A DNA stretch of 31,591 nt from Myxococcota bacterium (lineage in GTDB: Bacteria; Myxococcota_A; UBA796; GCA-2862545). The position numbers and the translations under genes are program-made. The DNA is taken from assembly GCA_039208735.1 (NCBI GenBank), contig JBCCQY010000107.1, positions 1 to 31,591 on the forward strand. The letters are read 5' to 3'. The notes beneath the pieces were generated by a model, which was not told the origin of the DNA, did no database searches, and saw only the letters and a list, made by a program, of their open reading frames with translations. Below, piece by piece: positions 9,854 to 30,271 of the stretch; the first letter of the stretch is position 1; every line of letters starts with the position of its first letter.

Positions 9854-12586
9854 GTGGTTGCGTGGGTTTGCCTTTCGGCCTTCGCCGGGTCTGCCGGCGA
9901 GCGAGTCCATCCCCCCACGGTCGACCCGCTGGTCACCACAAAACGAAGCCCAACGCTCTCGGGCACGCTCGACCCTCGGAGCATCGCCCTCCGGGTTCGC
10001 ATCCGCGGCACCTATGCGCTGCCCGGAACCCAAGGCCTCCATCATGAAGCGGGACGCTGGACGCTCGACCTGGAAGCGGCGTGGTTGAGCCTTCCCGAGG
10101 GCCGCCATGACGTTGTGGTCGAGGCCCAGGGGCCCGATGGGCGTTGGGTCACCGACCCCACCCGATTCGAAGTCGAGGTCGACCGTACGCCGCCTCCTGC
10201 CCCTACGGTCACGGCCAAGCGCACCGCGGATTCACCATCCCACCTCGACGGCCACTACGATCCCCAACAGGCCAAGCTCCTGACCGTGACGGTGGCGGGC
10301 CGCCGCTTCCCACAGGAGCACAAGGCGCTACGGCTTGATCCGGCCCGTCGGCGGTGGCGACTTGATCTGCGAAAGGCAGGCCTGCGCTTGCCCTCCGGCC
10401 ACCATGAAGTCATCGCTGTCGTGACCGATGCCGCGGGCCTCAAAGCGGCGGACACCACCCGACTCGAACTCGTCATCGTCACGGACCGGGATGGTGACGG
10501 CGTACCTGCCGAGGTCGAAGCGCGCTACGGCACACGCGACGACCGGGTGGACACCGATCACGATGGACTCCCTGACCGTGCCGAAATCCGTTGGTGGGGT
10601 ACCGACCCCCAGATTGCCGACACCGACCGCGATGGCCTCACCGACGGCGAAGAGGCGCTTCGCGACACCGACCCCCAAAGCCCCGACACCGACGGCGACG
10701 GTCTGTCGGACGGGGCCGAGATTCGCACGGACCCCCGGACCGCTGACACCGACCACGACGGTCTCGCCGATGGAGACGAGGACGTCAATGGCGACGGCCA
10801 CACCGACGAGCAAGAGACCGACCCGACCAATCCCGACTGCGATCACGATGGACTGCCCGATGGCGCCGAGTACGTGTTTGGGAGTCATCCCCTTTGGCCG
10901 GACACCGACGGCGGCGGGCAGCCCGATGGAGCCGAGGTTCTCGAGGGCCGCGATCCGACCGATCCCCGCGATGATCCCGTGGACCAAGACGGCGATGGCC
11001 TCGACGATCCGTCCGAAGTTCGGCGCTACGGGACGTCACCCCAGCTGGCCGATACCGACGGCGACGGCCTTGACGATGGCGTCGAGGTGCGCCGAACCCG
11101 GACCGATCCCACCCGTCGCGACTCGGATCGCGATGGATTGCTCGATGCCGAGGAGGACAAGCGAGGAACCGCCCCGACCAACGCTGACTCCGATGGGGAC
11201 GGACTTATCGATGGGGCCGAGGTCTTCCTTTGGTACACCGATCCCACCCATCGCGACACCGACCGCGACGGGTGGACCGATCACCACGAGGTCACCACGA
11301 CACACACGGACCCCACCCTCGCGGACACCGATGGTGATGGAATCATCGATCCATCCGAAGGTGCGTTCGGGAGTGACCCATACCACCCCGACTCCGATGG
11401 GGATGGGCGACTCGACGGAGACGAGGTCTACCTCATCGCCACCGATCCCGCGGACTGGGACACCGATGCCGACCAAATCGGCGACGGCGCAGAACTTGCG
11501 GTCGGCCGGTCGCCCTACGTTCCCGAGGTCCGAGGGAATCGGCCGGACCGTGACAAAGACGGGCTGTGGGATGGGGATGAAGCAGCCTGGGGTACCGATT
11601 CGGAGCGCTCCGATACCGATGGCGACGGGCTGTCGGACTTTGATGAGATCGATGGTGTGGGCTCAGACCCACGGCTCGCCGACACCGATGGCGATGGGTG
11701 GACGGATGGCGCAGAGCTGCTGGTTCACCTGACCGATCCGCGACGCATCGACACCGATGGCGATGGCCTTTCCGATCCCTCGGAACACTTCGTGCACGGC
11801 ACGTCGCCAAGCCTCCACGACACCGACGGGGACGGGCTCTCCGATGGCATGGAGTTGCGGATCTGGGGCTCGGATCCCCGTCGGATCGACTCCGATGACG
11901 ATGGCCTTCCGGATGGTGAAGAGGTTCGCATCGGCAGTGAGCCGCGCGCTCGCGATACCGACCATGATGGTCTGTCGGACTACGATGAGGTGCACGTCTA
12001 CTTCACCGACCCTGACCTGCCCGACACCGACAACGGCTCGGTGCTCGATGGGGTCGAGGTGGAGCGCGGGACGGACCCTCGCGACTACATCGACGACATC
12101 CGACCTGACCCGTGGGATGGGGATGGAGATGGCCTTTCGTGGGAGCAAGAACGCCTCTTGCGGTCCTCACCAGACCGGTTCGACACCGATGATGACGAAC
12201 TCGACGATGGCTTCGAATGCCGGATTAGCCGAACCCGACCTCAGGATCCGGACTCGGATGATGATGGCTGGTCGGATGGCGAGGAACGGCGGCGGGGTAC
12301 GCATCCCCTGCGGGGCGATACCGATGGTGACGGGCTCCCAGACCCCGCGGAGGGTCCTCTCGGAACGGACCCGACCCATCCCGACACTGATGGGGACCAG
12401 CTGCCCGATGGCGAAGAGCTGTTTGTGACCCGAACCGACCCGACCAATCCTGATACCGATGCAGATGGACTGGCCGATGCCATCGAAGTGCACTGGTGGA
12501 TGTCGGATCCGCTGAACCTTGACTCCGATGGCGACGACGTTCCCGACGCGGCCGAGGTCGACCAAGGAACGTTGGGGAGTCCTTGA
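9854..12586 (+). CDS. Secreted/surface protein: two Ig-like repeats + ~30 Ca-binding DxDxDG (TSP3/PA-like) repeats
   Basis: Short hydrophobic N-terminus; two ~100-aa PTV...RWxLDL..LPxGxH repeats; then D[TS]DxDGLxDGxE...TDP units of 20-24 aa; GGAGGGG RBS. Confidence 0.85.
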   Translation: MVAWVCLSAFAGSAGERVHPPTVDPLVTTKRSPTLSGTLDPRSIALRVRIRGTYALPGTQGLHHEAGRWTLDLEAAWLSLPEGRHDVVVEAQGPDGRWVTDPTRFEVEVDRTPPPAPTVTAKRTADSPSHLDGHYDPQQAKLLTVTVAGRRFPQEHKALRLDPARRRWRLDLRKAGLRLPSGHHEVIAVVTDAAGLKAADTTRLELVIVTDRDGDGVPAEVEARYGTRDDRVDTDHDGLPDRAEIRWWGTDPQIADTDRDGLTDGEEALRDTDPQSPDTDGDGLSDGAEIRTDPRTADTDHDGLADGDEDVNGDGHTDEQETDPTNPDCDHDGLPDGAEYVFGSHPLWPDTDGGGQPDGAEVLEGRDPTDPRDDPVDQDGDGLDDPSEVRRYGTSPQLADTDGDGLDDGVEVRRTRTDPTRRDSDRDGLLDAEEDKRGTAPTNADSDGDGLIDGAEVFLWYTDPTHRDTDRDGWTDHHEVTTTHTDPTLADTDGDGIIDPSEGAFGSDPYHPDSDGDGRLDGDEVYLIATDPADWDTDADQIGDGAELAVGRSPYVPEVRGNRPDRDKDGLWDGDEAAWGTDSERSDTDGDGLSDFDEIDGVGSDPRLADTDGDGWTDGAELLVHLTDPRRIDTDGDGLSDPSEHFVHGTSPSLHDTDGDGLSDGMELRIWGSDPRRIDSDDDGLPDGEEVRIGSEPRARDTDHDGLSDYDEVHVYFTDPDLPDTDNGSVLDGVEVERGTDPRDYIDDIRPDPWDGDGDGLSWEQERLLRSSPDRFDTDDDELDDGFECRISRTRPQDPDSDDDGWSDGEERRRGTHPLRGDTDGDGLPDPAEGPLGTDPTHPDTDGDQLPDGEELFVTRTDPTNPDTDADGLADAIEVHWWMSDPLNLDSDGDDVPDAAEVDQGTLGSP

Positions 12587-25699: not shown

Positions 25700-25812
25700 G
25701 ATCGGCGTGTAGTCTCGCGCTCGACCCGAGGCGAGGCCACGATCCCGGTTTGGCAATGTGCCGGTCAGGGGGTCGTCGGGCTATGGCTCGACCATCATCG
25801 AGGGAGGCCCCC

Positions 25813-26907
25813 ATGGCCCTTCAGGCCGGCATCGTTGGCTTGCCGAATGTCGGAAAGTCAACGCTCTTCAACGCGCTCACGGCCGCGGGAGCGGAGTCGG
25901 CGAACTATCCGTTCTGCACCATCGAGCCCAACGTTGGCGTCGTGGCGGTTCCCGATCCGCGACTCAACCAGATCACAAGCAAGATCGAGACTCAGAAGGT
26001 GATTCCTGCCGCGGTCGAGATCGTGGACATCGCTGGCCTGGTGCGAGGCGCGAGTAAGGGCGAAGGGCTCGGCAACCAGTTCCTGGGTAACATTCGCGCG
26101 GTCGATGCGATTCTGCACGTGGTGCGATGCTTCGACGACGCCGATATTACGCACGTCGACGGCGGCGTCGATCCGATTCGCGACATCGAGACCATCAACC
26201 TGGAACTGATCTTCAGCGACCTCGAAGCCGCCGAGCGCCGTTTCGACAAGTGGAAGAAGGCGGCGAAGTCAGGCAACGCCGAGGCGGTGAAGGAGCGCGA
26301 CCTCGCCGAGAAGCTGGTGGGACTGCTTGAAGCAAACCAGCCCATCCGGGGCGGCGAGTTTACCGAAGACCAGCAGACCCTGTTGAAACAAGCCCAGATG
26401 CTCACCGACAAGCCCGTTTTGTATGTGTGCAATGTCGATGAGGACGGGCTTGCGGAGGACAACGACTACGTAAAGGCGGTTCGCGAACATGCGGCGACGG
26501 AAGGCAGCGGTGTCGTCGTGCTGTGCGCGAAGGTCGAGTCCGAGCTCTCGGAGCTGGATGACGAAGATCGGGAAGTCTTTCTCACAGATCTCGGGCTTGC
26601 GGAGCCCGGGCTTTCCGTACTTGCGCGCGGGACCTATGAGCTGCTCGGGCTGCAAACGTATTTTACGGCGGGCGAGAAAGAGGTTCGGGCCTGGACGATT
26701 GGACAGGGGTGGAAGGCGCCGCAGGCGGCTGGGGTGATTCACAGCGATTTCGAGCGTGGGTTCATTCGGGCCGAGGTGTACACCATTGCCGACTTGTTGG
26801 AACATGGGTCAGAGGCATCCATGAAGGCGGCGGGACGAATTCGGTCGGAAGGGAAAGAGTATATTGTCAAGGATGGCGACGTGATGCATTTTCGCTTCAA
26901 TGTATAG
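25813..26907 (+). CDS. ychF: Redox-regulated ATPase YchF (Obg family)
   Basis: [51 protein letters not shown] domain ending [21 protein letters not shown]. Confidence 0.98.
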
Positions 26908-26936
26908 GCGCGCCGCTCAGCCCCATCTGGACAGGA

Positions 26937-26988
26937 TCGTTACCGCCACCGAAGGCGGATTGGTAACGAATCGGTAACACGCTATGCT
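26937..26988 (+). promoter_or_regulatory. Predicted sigma70-type integrase promoter overlapped by GGTAAC repeats
   Basis: TTGGTA (26960-26965)-N17-TATGCT (26983-26988). GGTAAC occurs at 26962 and 26973 (11 bp apart) and inverted as GTTACC at 26939; GGAGG RBS at 26997. Confidence 0.55.
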
Positions 26989-27010
26989 TTGCTGACGGAG
27001 GCAAAGCGGC

Positions 27011-28252
27011 GTGCGATTGACAGATGGGGTGTCGGGACACCTCGATCCGACGAGCGGTCGGGTCAAAGTGATGTGGCGGAACCGCGAGCAACAGGCCGAC
27101 GGTTCGATCAAGCAGCGACAGCGCAAACTGACATCGGATTCGTTGCCCGAAGCCCGCGAGCTTGCCGTCCAGATTGCGGCATCGTTGAAGAGGACGGGAT
27201 GGTTCGAACTCGGGCAATCGGCGTTCCGACCGGCGGTGGAGGACCTCGAGCGTGTATTCAAGGCCTACCTCGACCACAAGGTGAAGTTCGAGCGGGTGCG
27301 ACCCAATACACGAAGCAACCTCGCGCGTTCGTTCCAACGGTTCGGGCGTGGCATGCGTTCGTTGCTAGCGTTGTCGAATGCCGAAGTGATTCCCGCTGAA
27401 GCGATGACGCTCGAGAACTACCGACGTTGGGTCATGTGGGCCGGTTCGGTGGGGACGAGAGCAGGTGGAGCGTACGGTCCAGGCACAATCTACCAAAGTG
27501 CGCACACTGTATTGGATGCGTGGGGTTGGGCTGCAGACCAAGGACGTTGGATGTCGCTGCCGGCGCCTCCGTACAATCGCCGTGCCCATTTGCCGCCGAG
27601 TCCGCAGTACGGCCCACCGGCCGACACCGCGACCTGGGCGGAAATGGATGCAGCAATCGCGCGCATCCGAGCGGACCGTGGCGGGCCTACGCCGAATGTA
27701 GGGACTGCAAAGTACTCGGCGATTATCCAGCGGTTTACGGGGTTGCGCCTGTTCCAGGCGATCGGCATGCATGCAGAAGACATCGACATTGGCGGAAACA
27801 CGTTGATCATTCGACGAGGAAAGAGCAGGCGTGAGGCGGCATTAATGCGACGCATTGCGGTGTCGCCCCATCTTTGGGTCGCGCTCGAGCCTGTTCTGGC
27901 CCACGTCACGACCGGGCCGCTGTTTCCCGATCGGAGTCGTCCTGACTCGCCAATGGTGAGCTACCGCAACACGACGCGGTATGTGACCCGTGCTTGGAAC
28001 GATGCAATCGAAGACGGTCTCGCGCGAATAACGGTGGTTCGTCCCCCCAACCGAGACAAAGGAAGCCCGACGCATTGCTTCCGTTCAGGCTTCATGGCTC
28101 AGTTGGCGGCGAATGGGGTGAGTGACGCAGTGCTCGACCACCTTGTAGGGCATGCGCCGGGCAGTGTAAGAGGACAGCACTACACAACACCAAGCCTTGA
28201 ACTTCAGCATCAAGCGGTTTCGAACATTCCTTCCCTATCAGCCGGCACGTGA
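27011..28252 (+). CDS. Tyrosine recombinase/integrase, full length
   Basis: Catalytic residues R (RFTGLR), K (RGKS), HxxR (HCFR), H (LVGH), Y (GQHY); N-terminal arm-type and core-binding regions present. Confidence 0.92.
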   Translation: MRLTDGVSGHLDPTSGRVKVMWRNREQQADGSIKQRQRKLTSDSLPEARELAVQIAASLKRTGWFELGQSAFRPAVEDLERVFKAYLDHKVKFERVRPNTRSNLARSFQRFGRGMRSLLALSNAEVIPAEAMTLENYRRWVMWAGSVGTRAGGAYGPGTIYQSAHTVLDAWGWAADQGRWMSLPAPPYNRRAHLPPSPQYGPPADTATWAEMDAAIARIRADRGGPTPNVGTAKYSAIIQRFTGLRLFQAIGMHAEDIDIGGNTLIIRRGKSRREAALMRRIAVSPHLWVALEPVLAHVTTGPLFPDRSRPDSPMVSYRNTTRYVTRAWNDAIEDGLARITVVRPPNRDKGSPTHCFRSGFMAQLAANGVSDAVLDHLVGHAPGSVRGQHYTTPSLELQHQAVSNIPSLSAGT

Positions 28253-28322
28253 ACTCGAACCGACCACACCGCGGTCCCAACCGAAGCCAGTCGCAGCGGT
28301 GATGACTAGCTCACAGCCGGGC

Positions 28323-28513
28323 TCACCGCTCGTCCTGGGGGGCGGCTCCGCCTTCCCCTGGGGCTCCGCCCCCTGGCGCTAGACCTCCCGCCACACGAAA
28401 CCAAGGTCGGCGAAGCGGTCGCCGGGCGAGTACGCGTCGCGGAACGCGGCCCGCACGTTGCGCGCATTGCCGAACCAGCTGCCACCTCGGCCCACTCGCT
28501 CCGGGCCCGCAGT
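28323..28513 (-). pseudogene. C-terminal fragment of an FGE-sulfatase/CLec-fold protein, DGR variable-region-like
   Basis: The minus strand from 28513 reads TAGPERVGRGGSWFGNARNVRAAFRDAYSPGDRFADLGF. Restoring one C after GGTTTC gives the canonical LGFR and then VAGGLAPGGGAPGEGGAAPQDER* (TGA 28325-28323). There is no start codon or upstream FGE sequence. Not in the ORF track. Confidence 0.8.
28338..28372 (-). other. Tandem GC-rich hairpins with GGA triloops (DGR target-like cis element)
   Basis: Minus strand GGGGC-GGA-GCCCC (28372-28360) and GGGGaaGGC-GGA-GCCgcCCCC (28358-28338), 24 nt past the LGF codons. Confidence 0.55.
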
Positions 28514-28847
28514 AAACCCTGCTCGGGCCGAAGCGCCGAGGCCAACAAGGTCAGCAAACGGTCTACCAACGTGCGCCGTTAAGACTCAGAGACATCAGGA
28601 CCTTCGTCCCAACTCAATGTGGTCCAATGACGGCTCGGCACCTGACCTGGCACTAACGCGCACGCTGGACCTTCCATGACGGGCGAGGCGGTCCCCACTC
28701 GCTCCCAAAGGTGAACCAAGGGGCTTCTCACCCCGTCCTCAGGCTGCGGAGCATAGAATCCGAGGTCGTTCAAGTAAGGGTTGGCCCGTTGCGAGCAAGG
28801 CGTTGATGGCATGAACCGTCGGTTTTATCGAAATCGTGCCAAGATGG

Positions 28848-28888
28848 GGCCTACGACTTGGTGGAGGTGGTGCGGAGGGTGCCAGCGT
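28848..28888 (+). repeat. 41-bp direct repeat, copy 1 (integrase 3'-end remnant)
   Basis: GGCCTACGACTTGGTGGAGGTGGTGCGGAGGGTGCCAGCGT, 38/41 identical to 30202-30242; encodes AYDLVEVVRRVPA versus AYDLAEVVGRVPV. Confidence 0.9.
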
Positions 28889-28907
28889 TGCATGCCGACC
28901 ATCGAGA

Positions 28908-29582
28908 TCAGTCGTGTGCAACTGGGTAGCCTATGGCAACTGCATTGGAGACCGCGGCGGGCCAGTCCACTGCAGTGGGCAAAGCATCGAACTGCTTGCG
29001 ACTGAGAGGGGAGAGTCCGAAGAAGTGTTGTAGCACCTCATCCTCCATCCCAACCTCGAAGTAGTCTTTACAGTGCTCTAGGTACCCCTGTCGACCATGC
29101 AACAGTGGTGAAGTCAAATGAGTCGCTCCGTCCGGATCAAGGCCGTTTGGTAGCTCTAGGTAGTCGTGTGTCCAACCGTGACCATCGCCGAGGTTCCAGG
29201 TACAGAAGGTCGTGCAGTCAACTGCGAACGCTGGCTCCTTCAATAGAGCCATTAGGCAATTGGGCAAAAGAGAGAAGAGACCAGGCCAGAGCCTTGGTGG
29301 TTCTTCACGAAAGGGCGACATCTGACTCTCATGGTCGAATCCCTTGAGCCAAGCACTTCCGTCACCGAACACGATGAAGAAGTGGTCCCCGCTACCGTTC
29401 TGCATGGATGCTAGCCCTTGACGAGGAGCCCAGGCCGAGTCGAACCTGTAGACGCTGCTCGCCTCGTCCATCGCCAACATGGAATCTAGCATAGCCGCGG
29501 CTTGAAACCACTGACGAGCTTCAGCTGAAGATGGCAGCAGTTGAACGACTTCTCGAATCGACACGAATTCCTCCTTGGGCAT
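28908..29582 (-). CDS. Conserved hypothetical protein, probable orphan immunity protein
   Basis: 224 aa with blocks AMLD..L, Y.FDS.W, ASM.NGSGD..FIVF, KGFDHES.MSP, WPGLF, EPAF, DG, DY.E, IGYP, a pattern I recognise from a widespread uncharacterised family. AT-richer than the host genes; GAGG upstream. The immunity role is inferred from context. Confidence 0.75.
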   Translation of the reverse strand: MPKEEFVSIREVVQLLPSSAEARQWFQAAAMLDSMLAMDEASSVYRFDSAWAPRQGLASMQNGSGDHFFIVFGDGSAWLKGFDHESQMSPFREEPPRLWPGLFSLLPNCLMALLKEPAFAVDCTTFCTWNLGDGHGWTHDYLELPNGLDPDGATHLTSPLLHGRQGYLEHCKDYFEVGMEDEVLQHFFGLSPLSRKQFDALPTAVDWPAAVSNAVAIGYPVAHD

Positions 29583-29599
29583 CTGCCACGAGCCTCATA

Positions 29600-30271
29600 C
29601 TGGTTCAGCTGATGTGGCGATGGGCGGACGAGAGCGACCGGTGGCCGGGTCGCGTCCCAAGACCGAGGCGCATCGAGACGCCGCGGAACGCGCCGAGACC
29701 GCCGAAAGCACCCATGTGGCCGGAGATGGACGCCTGCATCGCGGCGGTGAAGACACCGTGGATTGCCTCCTTGTTGACGTTCCTCCGCTTCACCGGGCTC
29801 CGGGTCGGCGAGACCATGATGTTGCGCCGGAACGATCTCGACATGGAGCGGAGGCTCCTGACCATCGAGCCGGGGATCACAAAGAACAAGCGTGGCCGCA
29901 TGATCTCCGTGAGCGCTCACCTCATCGAAGCGCTCGACGCATGGCCGAGGGACACCGTCTGGCTGATCCCGTCGCCGGCCAGGGGTCAGGACAGGACGCG
30001 GCAACCGCGACCCCGGGAGGTGGCTCTCGCGTGGCAGGACGCTGGCGTGCCGGAGCGGGTGTGGCGTGGAGTGCCGCATCATGCCTTCAGGAAGGGCTTC
30101 AAGAGTGGGCTCCTCCGAGCCGGGGCCGCGCCCGACGCCGTCGACCACCTGCAGGGGCACGTAATCTCGGGCAGTCGGGAGCGCTACATCGACCCATTCG
30201 TGGCCTACGACTTGGCGGAGGTGGTGGGGAGGGTGCCAGTGTCAATGGAACCAGCATCACTGGGGTCGTGA
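29600..30271 (+). pseudogene. 5'-truncated tyrosine recombinase (catalytic domain retained)
   Basis: MWRWAD..RW, WPEMDACIA, RFTGLR, TKNK, HHAFRKGF, DHLQGH, RERY. Homologous to 27011-28252 but missing about the first 160 aa. The ORF-track ATG at 29531 lies inside the opposite-strand gene. Confidence 0.85.
30202..30242 (+). repeat. 41-bp direct repeat, copy 2 (3' end of the truncated integrase)
   Basis: GGCCTACGACTTGGCGGAGGTGGTGGGGAGGGTGCCAGTGT; also supplies the TAG stop (30205-30207) of the opposite-strand immunity gene. Confidence 0.9.

Follow-up and report, generated by a model that had tools for sequence, protein, structure and literature searches.

A likely relic of a MoxR-linked DGR locus, probably collapsed by two large deletions, beside a ychF-associated integrase in a Myxococcota genome

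We find that positions 28822-28323 (minus strand) of a 31,591-nucleotide contig from a Myxococcota bacterium are likely to be the dead remains of a MoxR-linked DGR locus, probably collapsed by two large deletions. The window that we analysed is the whole of this contig, C107, of a 9.4-Mb assembly in 288 contigs that is 92.7% complete. Within about 500 bp of it lie three pieces of one operon, from a MoxR ATPase, from a long CLec target, and from a variable region (VR) with its hairpins; they follow each other in operon order on one strand, and each was recognised by its own, independent homology match. Because the pieces stand in this order and kilobases are missing where they meet, we read the locus as a collapsed MoxR-CLec DGR operon of the clade 5A layout (Dore et al. 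2024), and we put at roughly 85% the probability that it holds a real DGR-derived VR within such a collapsed operon, most likely inert. An earlier, sequence-only reading of this DNA had seen the VR fragment and had missed the two further operon remnants, at 28822-28504.

The VR, which forms the end of an FGE/CLec domain, lies at 28402-28513 (minus strand), and DNA homology to its family spans 28513 to about 28326 (nhmmer, 94 bits, with seven CLec-domain DNAs of the genus). The terminal motif is where the sequence-only reading had placed it, with the arginine of RGGSW at 28489 (minus strand), and each of the 12 codons that it had listed is exactly as written. Variable codons were defined from a set of 29 templates, all of other genomes (two Asn-rich, not template-like sequences, L096 and L116, were left out), as those reading AAY in 40% or more of them, which gave 11 positions. 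All 11 end in a pyrimidine in the window (NNY) and are so derivable from AAY by changes at codon positions 1 and 2, against 12 of 22 codons elsewhere in the segment (Fisher p=0.007); with the local pyrimidine-ending background of 0.565, the probability of 11/11 is 0.0019. Verified VRs, meaning those whose own locus holds a template that they match with one non-adenine difference at most (n=35, not mutually independent), have 11 such codons in 26 cases, 10 in five and 9 in four, and ordinary FGE ends of the same genome (n=12) have 4-10, with a mean of 7.1. On a base-composition score over these 11 codons (DGR versus ordinary FGE) the window reaches +13.5 bits; the verified VRs range from 3.4 to 22.5 and the ordinary ends from -43.9 to -3.2; these controls exclude the VR-like end on C238 and four matches to the motif (C7, C14, C30, C70) that do not belong to FGE genes. 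The score is fallible, in that two members of the family fall below zero, C120b at -12.4 and the orphan VR of G012:C209 at -2.3. The high GC3 that had been raised as a caveat therefore does not explain the codons, all 12 ordinary ends being negative on the same scale.

A DGR origin of the segment, as had been proposed, is further seen in its closest homologues, which are verified DGR targets and not ordinary FGE proteins, and in an intact cassette of the same genus that has the same tail; the template pattern predicted by the sequence-only reading is approached in a G062 template, which is Asn-rich at nearly the same codons. The single-nucleotide deletion that had been noticed in the Gly-Phe-Arg codons is at 28400-28401 (minus strand) and appears as a gap against every aligned paralogue. 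It falls where, in homologues, the VR and the template have a 3′ stretch in common, and, with this base missing, the VR frame ends at a TAG at 28382-28380. Elsewhere in the genome, C238 (L021:5281-5430) carries a second orphan VR-like end, from a different template family, with +6.5 bits and without a GGA hairpin; its neighbour is presumably a transposase fragment. The orphan VR of G012:C209 (L005:1500-1640) has a 5′ boundary nearly like that of the window and is in frame with a truncated CLec domain.

The tail at 28373-28401 (minus strand) is common to the paralogous targets and resembles an IMH, a role that it may once have had. In the same genome three CLec domains on C120 and one on C22 terminate in it, and of 154 genomes in the order only 3, each a member of this genus, have its pattern; in the sister species G014, the template diverges from its targets within the equivalent stretch. 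Two GGA-triloop hairpins follow, as claimed before: hairpin 1 at 28360-28372 (minus strand), with a 5-bp stem and its loop at offset +32, and hairpin 2 at 28344-28352 (minus strand), with a 3-bp stem and its loop at +50. In other tails of the family the first loop lies at +33 to +36 in six of seven (at +41 in C22), and the +32 of the window is the shift expected from its 1-nt loss; the second lies at +47 to +56 in homologues, where stem sequences vary yet pair over 3-7 bp. At least two GGA-loop stems are present in all eight full-length close-family tails versus 0.135% of 20,000 random 75-mers; among the 35 verified VRs, which are more distant, just 4 have two. At least one GGA hairpin occurs in 18/35 verified VR tails, 1/12 ordinary FGE tails and 1/29 template tails, which makes it, that one template apart, a VR-specific 3′ element absent from the template, with a putative role in homing. 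The support for these hairpins is their conserved position and not their stability: we rejected folding energy as evidence, since the hairpins are no stabler than shuffled sequences (z = -0.67) and their bases are paired differently in the minimum-energy fold of the window. Hairpins 3′ of the VR aid homing in BPP-1, according to the part of that report used here (PMC3240598), and GRA triloops inside the target gene are described for archaeal DGRs in the part drawn on of PMC4372165. The tail of C107 is similar to the tails of C120c and C22, both terminal short targets, which suggests that the second of the two deletions may also have taken out an HRDC-RT-template core.

Upstream of the VR lie the two remnants that had been missed. 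The first is an N-terminal piece of a MoxR AAA+ ATPase at 28766-28822 (minus strand), consisting of the 19 codons just 5′ of the Walker A loop. A whole-domain MoxR profile did not list this piece, only 19 codons long as it is; a PSSM from 41 such motifs of other genomes reached at least 25.6 bits at 2 of 18,765,098 six-frame 19-mers of the genome, which are the intact MoxR gene of C120 and the window's 28822-28766. The second, at 28504-28773 (minus strand), comes from the extension at the N-terminus of a long CLec target and has 90 codons, with an internal TAA at 28581-28579. Profiles of the long target from other genomes, built without the window sequence, found it genome-wide with iE 1.4e-5 (44 sequences) and 1.1e-6 (46 sequences), as the genome's second-best match behind the intact gene of C120, and the spacing within the piece, 249 nt, is normal (219-282 in homologues). 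An FGE-domain DNA-profile match at about 28641-28582 (E 0.05) was considered and rejected, the long-target extension fitting far better. What remains of MoxR thus lies immediately 5′ of what remains of a long CLec target and its N-terminal extension, in the right order.

The pieces meet at two deletion junctions. At junction 1 (28765-28774, minus strand) the MoxR and target frames overlap, and about 1.6 kb is missing: motif to motif the distance is 10 nt versus 1514-1745 nt (median 1604) in 17 intact loci, and a microhomology was probably involved. At junction 2 (28504-28513, minus strand) 9-10 nt encode the conserved LRA when read in the target frame and give a TAG when read in that of the VR; the loss here is at least 1.3 kb, the distance to RGGSW being 35 nt versus at least 1299 nt (median 1545) in 19 loci. 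The distance table leaves out the window copies and duplicate loci, and 17 of its 19 intact loci were measurable for the first gap. LLRA is found in 35 of the 44 motif matches listed, and a TAG 5′ of the VR also in G014 VR1, G012:C209 and C22; the 9-10 nt therefore read as conserved residues in both frames, which is the mark expected of a short-repeat deletion. We infer this mechanism, an intact parent not having turned up: the 90-codon piece had no match when a database was searched with it directly, and 51 of 248 homologous proteins match it, none closely. Ectopic insertion of a cDNA was rejected as the origin of the fragment because the tail is target-type, not template-type, and is fused to upstream operon pieces. 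With two deletions, an internal stop and the 1-nt loss, the target reading frame is not intact.

Relatives of the locus show what may have been lost. On G014:C118, from a sister species of the same genus, an intact cassette has the order TIR-MoxR-long CLec target-HRDC-RT-template-short CLec target, and each of its two VRs, within the first 60 nt, departs from the template at 7-8 adenines and nowhere else; the C22 VR of our own genome likewise differs from the G014 template over this length at 8 adenines and 0 other bases. A cassette similar to that of G014:C118 is found in G062, and the 76 loci fetched with the C120 short target include many template-VR pairs with adenine-only differences. In the 3′ half of the G014:C118 template (L119:2340-2450), G, C or T stands where its own VRs have A, at codons 21, 24, 27 and 29, with 4-6 non-A mismatches, as if this template had itself been overwritten or were mis-assembled. 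G014 has 8 matches to the DGR RT query, and DGR cassettes or templates of other families were seen at L165:1900-4300 (G014:C131), L026 (G001:C188), L024 (G017:C532), L029 (G014:C217) and L164 (G013:C509).

In the own genome, C120 (L019:5445-10961) keeps an intact MoxR gene, a long target with two CLec domains, whose nearest named homologue is labelled 'Myxococcales bacterium', and a short CLec target. Its HRDC accessory gene, from 9883 (9883-10038), consists of the first 51 codons and ends at the start of the short target (E 2.8e-9), in an interval about 1.6 kb shorter than the equivalent one in G014; the HRDC-RT-template core has therefore been cut out in this genome, and C120 is a frozen sensor locus, apparently still readable. 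C22 (L020:4990-6600; G000:C22:66986-68594) holds decayed tandem CLec genes, with a duplicated stretch after both copies. Taking C120, intact and frozen, together with C107, reduced to little beyond VR, tail and twin GGA hairpins, one could speculate that MoxR-linked DGRs of this lineage are switched off by core excision while keeping their sensors and landing signals; the twin hairpin would then be a lineage-specific target code, and minimal relics would be dormant landing pads or decoys, rewritable by an arriving compatible cassette. We think this generalisation very unlikely.

Turning to the trans-acting parts, the window contains no RT, Avd or template, as the sequence-only reading had stated, and this extends to the assembly. 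The own genome, G000, has 3 matches to PF00078, which we take to be two retron-like and one group II intron-like fragment. The G014 DGR RT as query found no match in it, and a 22-sequence DGR-RT profile gave only weak partial matches to two of these three. Avd (NF033474) had no match in the assembly, and the HRDC matches there are C-terminal domains of three long housekeeping-type proteins and not a whole accessory gene, the sole accessory trace being the truncated stub at C120; such absence in a 92.7% complete assembly is not proof, and DGR repeats can fail to assemble. By blastn and an adenine-wildcard scan no cognate template was found in the own genome, the best site on all 288 contigs having 25 non-A mismatches in 99 nt. 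The same scan of other loci (a set of 171, less 3 window copies; 1.47 Mb) gave at best 13 non-A mismatches, in the nearest template, that of metagenome locus L030 (12 A and 13 non-A in 99 nt). Nor was a cognate template found in 49 family genomes, in 182 class genomes or on further RT-bearing contigs of the genus, and exact template patterns had 0 matches in viral contigs, 0 in genome contigs and 5 in metagenome contigs, none of them cognate. The copy differing only at adenines beside a DGR RT, for which a BLASTn search had been proposed, was thus not found in the genome and metagenomes searched, and a template for the four paralogous VRs is likewise absent from the assembly. With neither a cognate template nor an intact parent found for the C107 VR, its divergence cannot be demonstrated to be adenine-only. 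None of four defining features tested for a complete DGR was found, and the locus is therefore not a complete DGR.

The sequence-only reading had left the choice between a relic and a remote target. The relic part is supported, with the locus collapsed, frameshifted and interrupted by an internal stop; the remote-target part is not, no cognate template having been found. A remote target would still be live if VR, tail and hairpins, though they encode no protein, could be homed to by a cognate RT-template cassette that is unassembled or visiting. The codon signature is indeed still sharp, the assembly is incomplete, DGR RT matches occur in 3 of the 4 other genomes of the genus, and remote targets exist in cellular DGRs, as described in the part of PMC5758913 used here. 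Against this, no template, RT, Avd or whole HRDC accessory gene is in the assembly, and the 1-nt loss is inside the very 3′ homology stretch. Between the window VR and the VRs of C120 and C22, moreover, 14-17 of 63 constant-codon bases are different, almost always silently, so that the window VR would come from a separate cassette, and several templates, one each for C107, C120 and C22, would all need to be missing. A contig from one run, X1, shows no variant letters here at a depth of 8.7, though contigs drop rare variants. We consider a live target very unlikely, and return to a relic whose present role is most likely none.

The same run bears on whether the collapse might be an artefact, in which repeats of paralogous MoxR-CLec loci were mis-joined. 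There are several paralogous loci on the 288 contigs, and assembly can also create junctions at short overlaps. The X1 contig, however, was assembled separately (possibly from the same sample) and matches 26500-29635 with 0 differences and 0 gaps, the 1-nt deletion included. The overlaps of about 10 nt are far below the assembly word length, no near-identical copy of the pieces exists elsewhere in the assembly, and a 212-base contig from another study joins the integrase end to the hairpin tail (28177-28392) at about 96% identity, stopping short of the VR. A mis-join is accordingly highly improbable. Runs X2-X4 had small match shares, which are no evidence of habitat. That the segment is an ordinary FGE-sulfatase gene end, with NNC codons and hairpins from high G+C, is hardly credible and already largely refuted: there are 32 FGE-family matches in the genome, C makes up 41% of third positions in the window genes, the hairpin folding energy is unremarkable and one ordinary end reaches 10/11 NNY, but the 11 positions show a template-type bias at a score that none of the 12 ordinary ends approaches, the nearest homologues are verified DGR targets, and MoxR and long-target remnants are attached.

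Drawing on established DGR knowledge and on the intact G014 and G062 cassettes, we can sketch how the collapsed operon would once have worked, as a target locus of the clade 5A type. In the whole system the RT and the HRDC accessory protein would copy an adenine-rich template RNA with errors at A, and the cDNA would then replace the VR, guided by the common 3′ tail and the GGA hairpins, so that a CLec sensor, coupled to MoxR, would vary in the residues that bind its ligand. Such a sensor role of MoxR-coupled CLec proteins is a proposal of Dore et al. 2024, in the part of that article used here (PMC10907252). In the decay that we envisage, a deletion of about 1.6 kb would have joined MoxR to mid-target, and another of at least 1.3 kb would have joined mid-target to the VR at the 9-10 nt overlap, probably via short-repeat recombination; the 1-nt loss and the stop codon would have accumulated.

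The relic lies in what appears to be an integrated island. Its left bound and likely integration site is ychF at 25750-26907 (plus strand; Pfam YchF-GTPase_C), of whose 3′ end there is no second copy in the assembly, followed by a tyrosine integrase of a ychF-associated family at 27011-28252 (plus strand; PF00589, E 1.6e-8). Across the order, 39 of 154 genomes match this integrase family, and ychF is adjacent in 14 of 19 homologue loci. The upstream bound of the relic is a 41-bp repeat of the 3′ end of a second integrase gene at 28848-28888 (plus strand), with a copy at 30202-30242 (93% identical) and further copies on C3, C5, C7, C153 and C212; the two window copies bracket a 224-aa gene, and the second integrase is apparently 5′-truncated. 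Past the integrase and this repeat are two genes without a family match in three libraries, and a PT-HINT frame cut by the contig end; C3 and C153, both contigs with the second-integrase end, also match the PT-HINT gene. From this layout, immunity genes and an interbacterial toxin may stand beside the relic. The sequence-only reading had linked DGR cargo to a toxin-bearing integrase island: the link holds here by position, the toxin-bearing part of it through the PT-HINT domain, but not in general, with no target, RT or HRDC match in 15 stretches (205 kb, several short) of ychF islands from 12 other genomes, so that the association looks incidental. Elsewhere on the contig, 9854-12586 (plus strand) encodes a 910-aa protein that, to judge from its translation, consists mostly of Asp-rich 'DTDGDG' repeats after two Ig-like segments, and where the contig begins (1-252) a unit of about 81 bases is repeated in tandem, seen as repeated peptides among the ORFs.

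As a pseudogene of a described system, the C107 relic is of modest value in itself. It shows, nonetheless, that codons and cis-elements still record the history of a DGR once RT and template are gone; RT-anchored surveys miss such cases, a limit noted in the part of PMC8144416 used here. It is also a clear example of gain and loss, with at least three separately derived disarmed loci (C107, C120 and C22) in one genome, and an intact cassette kept by the sister species.

The closest known systems are the clade 5A MoxR-linked DGRs, such as DGR 8 of Thiohalocapsa PB-PSB1 (PMC10907252; here and below we compare with those parts of the cited papers on which we drew). As in these, MoxR lies directly 5′ of a long CLec target, which has an unannotated N-terminal extension and a C-terminal CLec domain, and in G014 and C120 there is also a further, short target consisting of CLec only, with TIR or peptidase genes nearby; for the relatives in G014 and G062 this is a likeness of layout. 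Loss or decay of RT or template at some MoxR-linked loci is in print (PMC10907252, section 7), and C107 is likely a relic of a known kind of system. Unlike those loci, what remains of the C107 operon spans about 500 bp and holds no reading frame, its losses are clean deletions with no MITE-like array seen, and RT, template and accessory gene were not found in its assembly. The vWA-MoxR (VMAP) ternary conflict systems (Kaur et al. 2020, PMC7159879) likewise combine MoxR with an FGS-domain partner that has a variable C-terminus, in association with DGRs, although the C120 and G014 genes gave no vWA or VMAP Pfam match and the window retains no effector gene. With the HRDC-type DGRs of architecture C (Wu et al. 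2018, PMC5758913) G014:C118 shares an HRDC accessory gene beside the RT and two targets, whereas the window is without any trans-acting part.

The hairpins, finally, recall two described elements. Like the IMH and GRNA-tetraloop hairpin of BPP-1 (PMC3240598), they are short GC-rich inverted repeats just 3′ of the VR and absent from the template, and like those of the archaeal DUSEL4 DGRs (PMC4372165) they present a GRA triloop inside the target reading frame. We found no description of twin GGA hairpins in the parts of the DGR literature searched, supplements aside. Whereas phage DGRs have one 7-10 bp stem with a 4-nt loop, the C107 family has two tandem hairpins with 3-7 bp stems and a GGA loop in all listed cases; with their sequence-varying stems, these twin hairpins are a concrete candidate, open to testing, for the signal by which cellular HRDC-type DGRs recognise a target.
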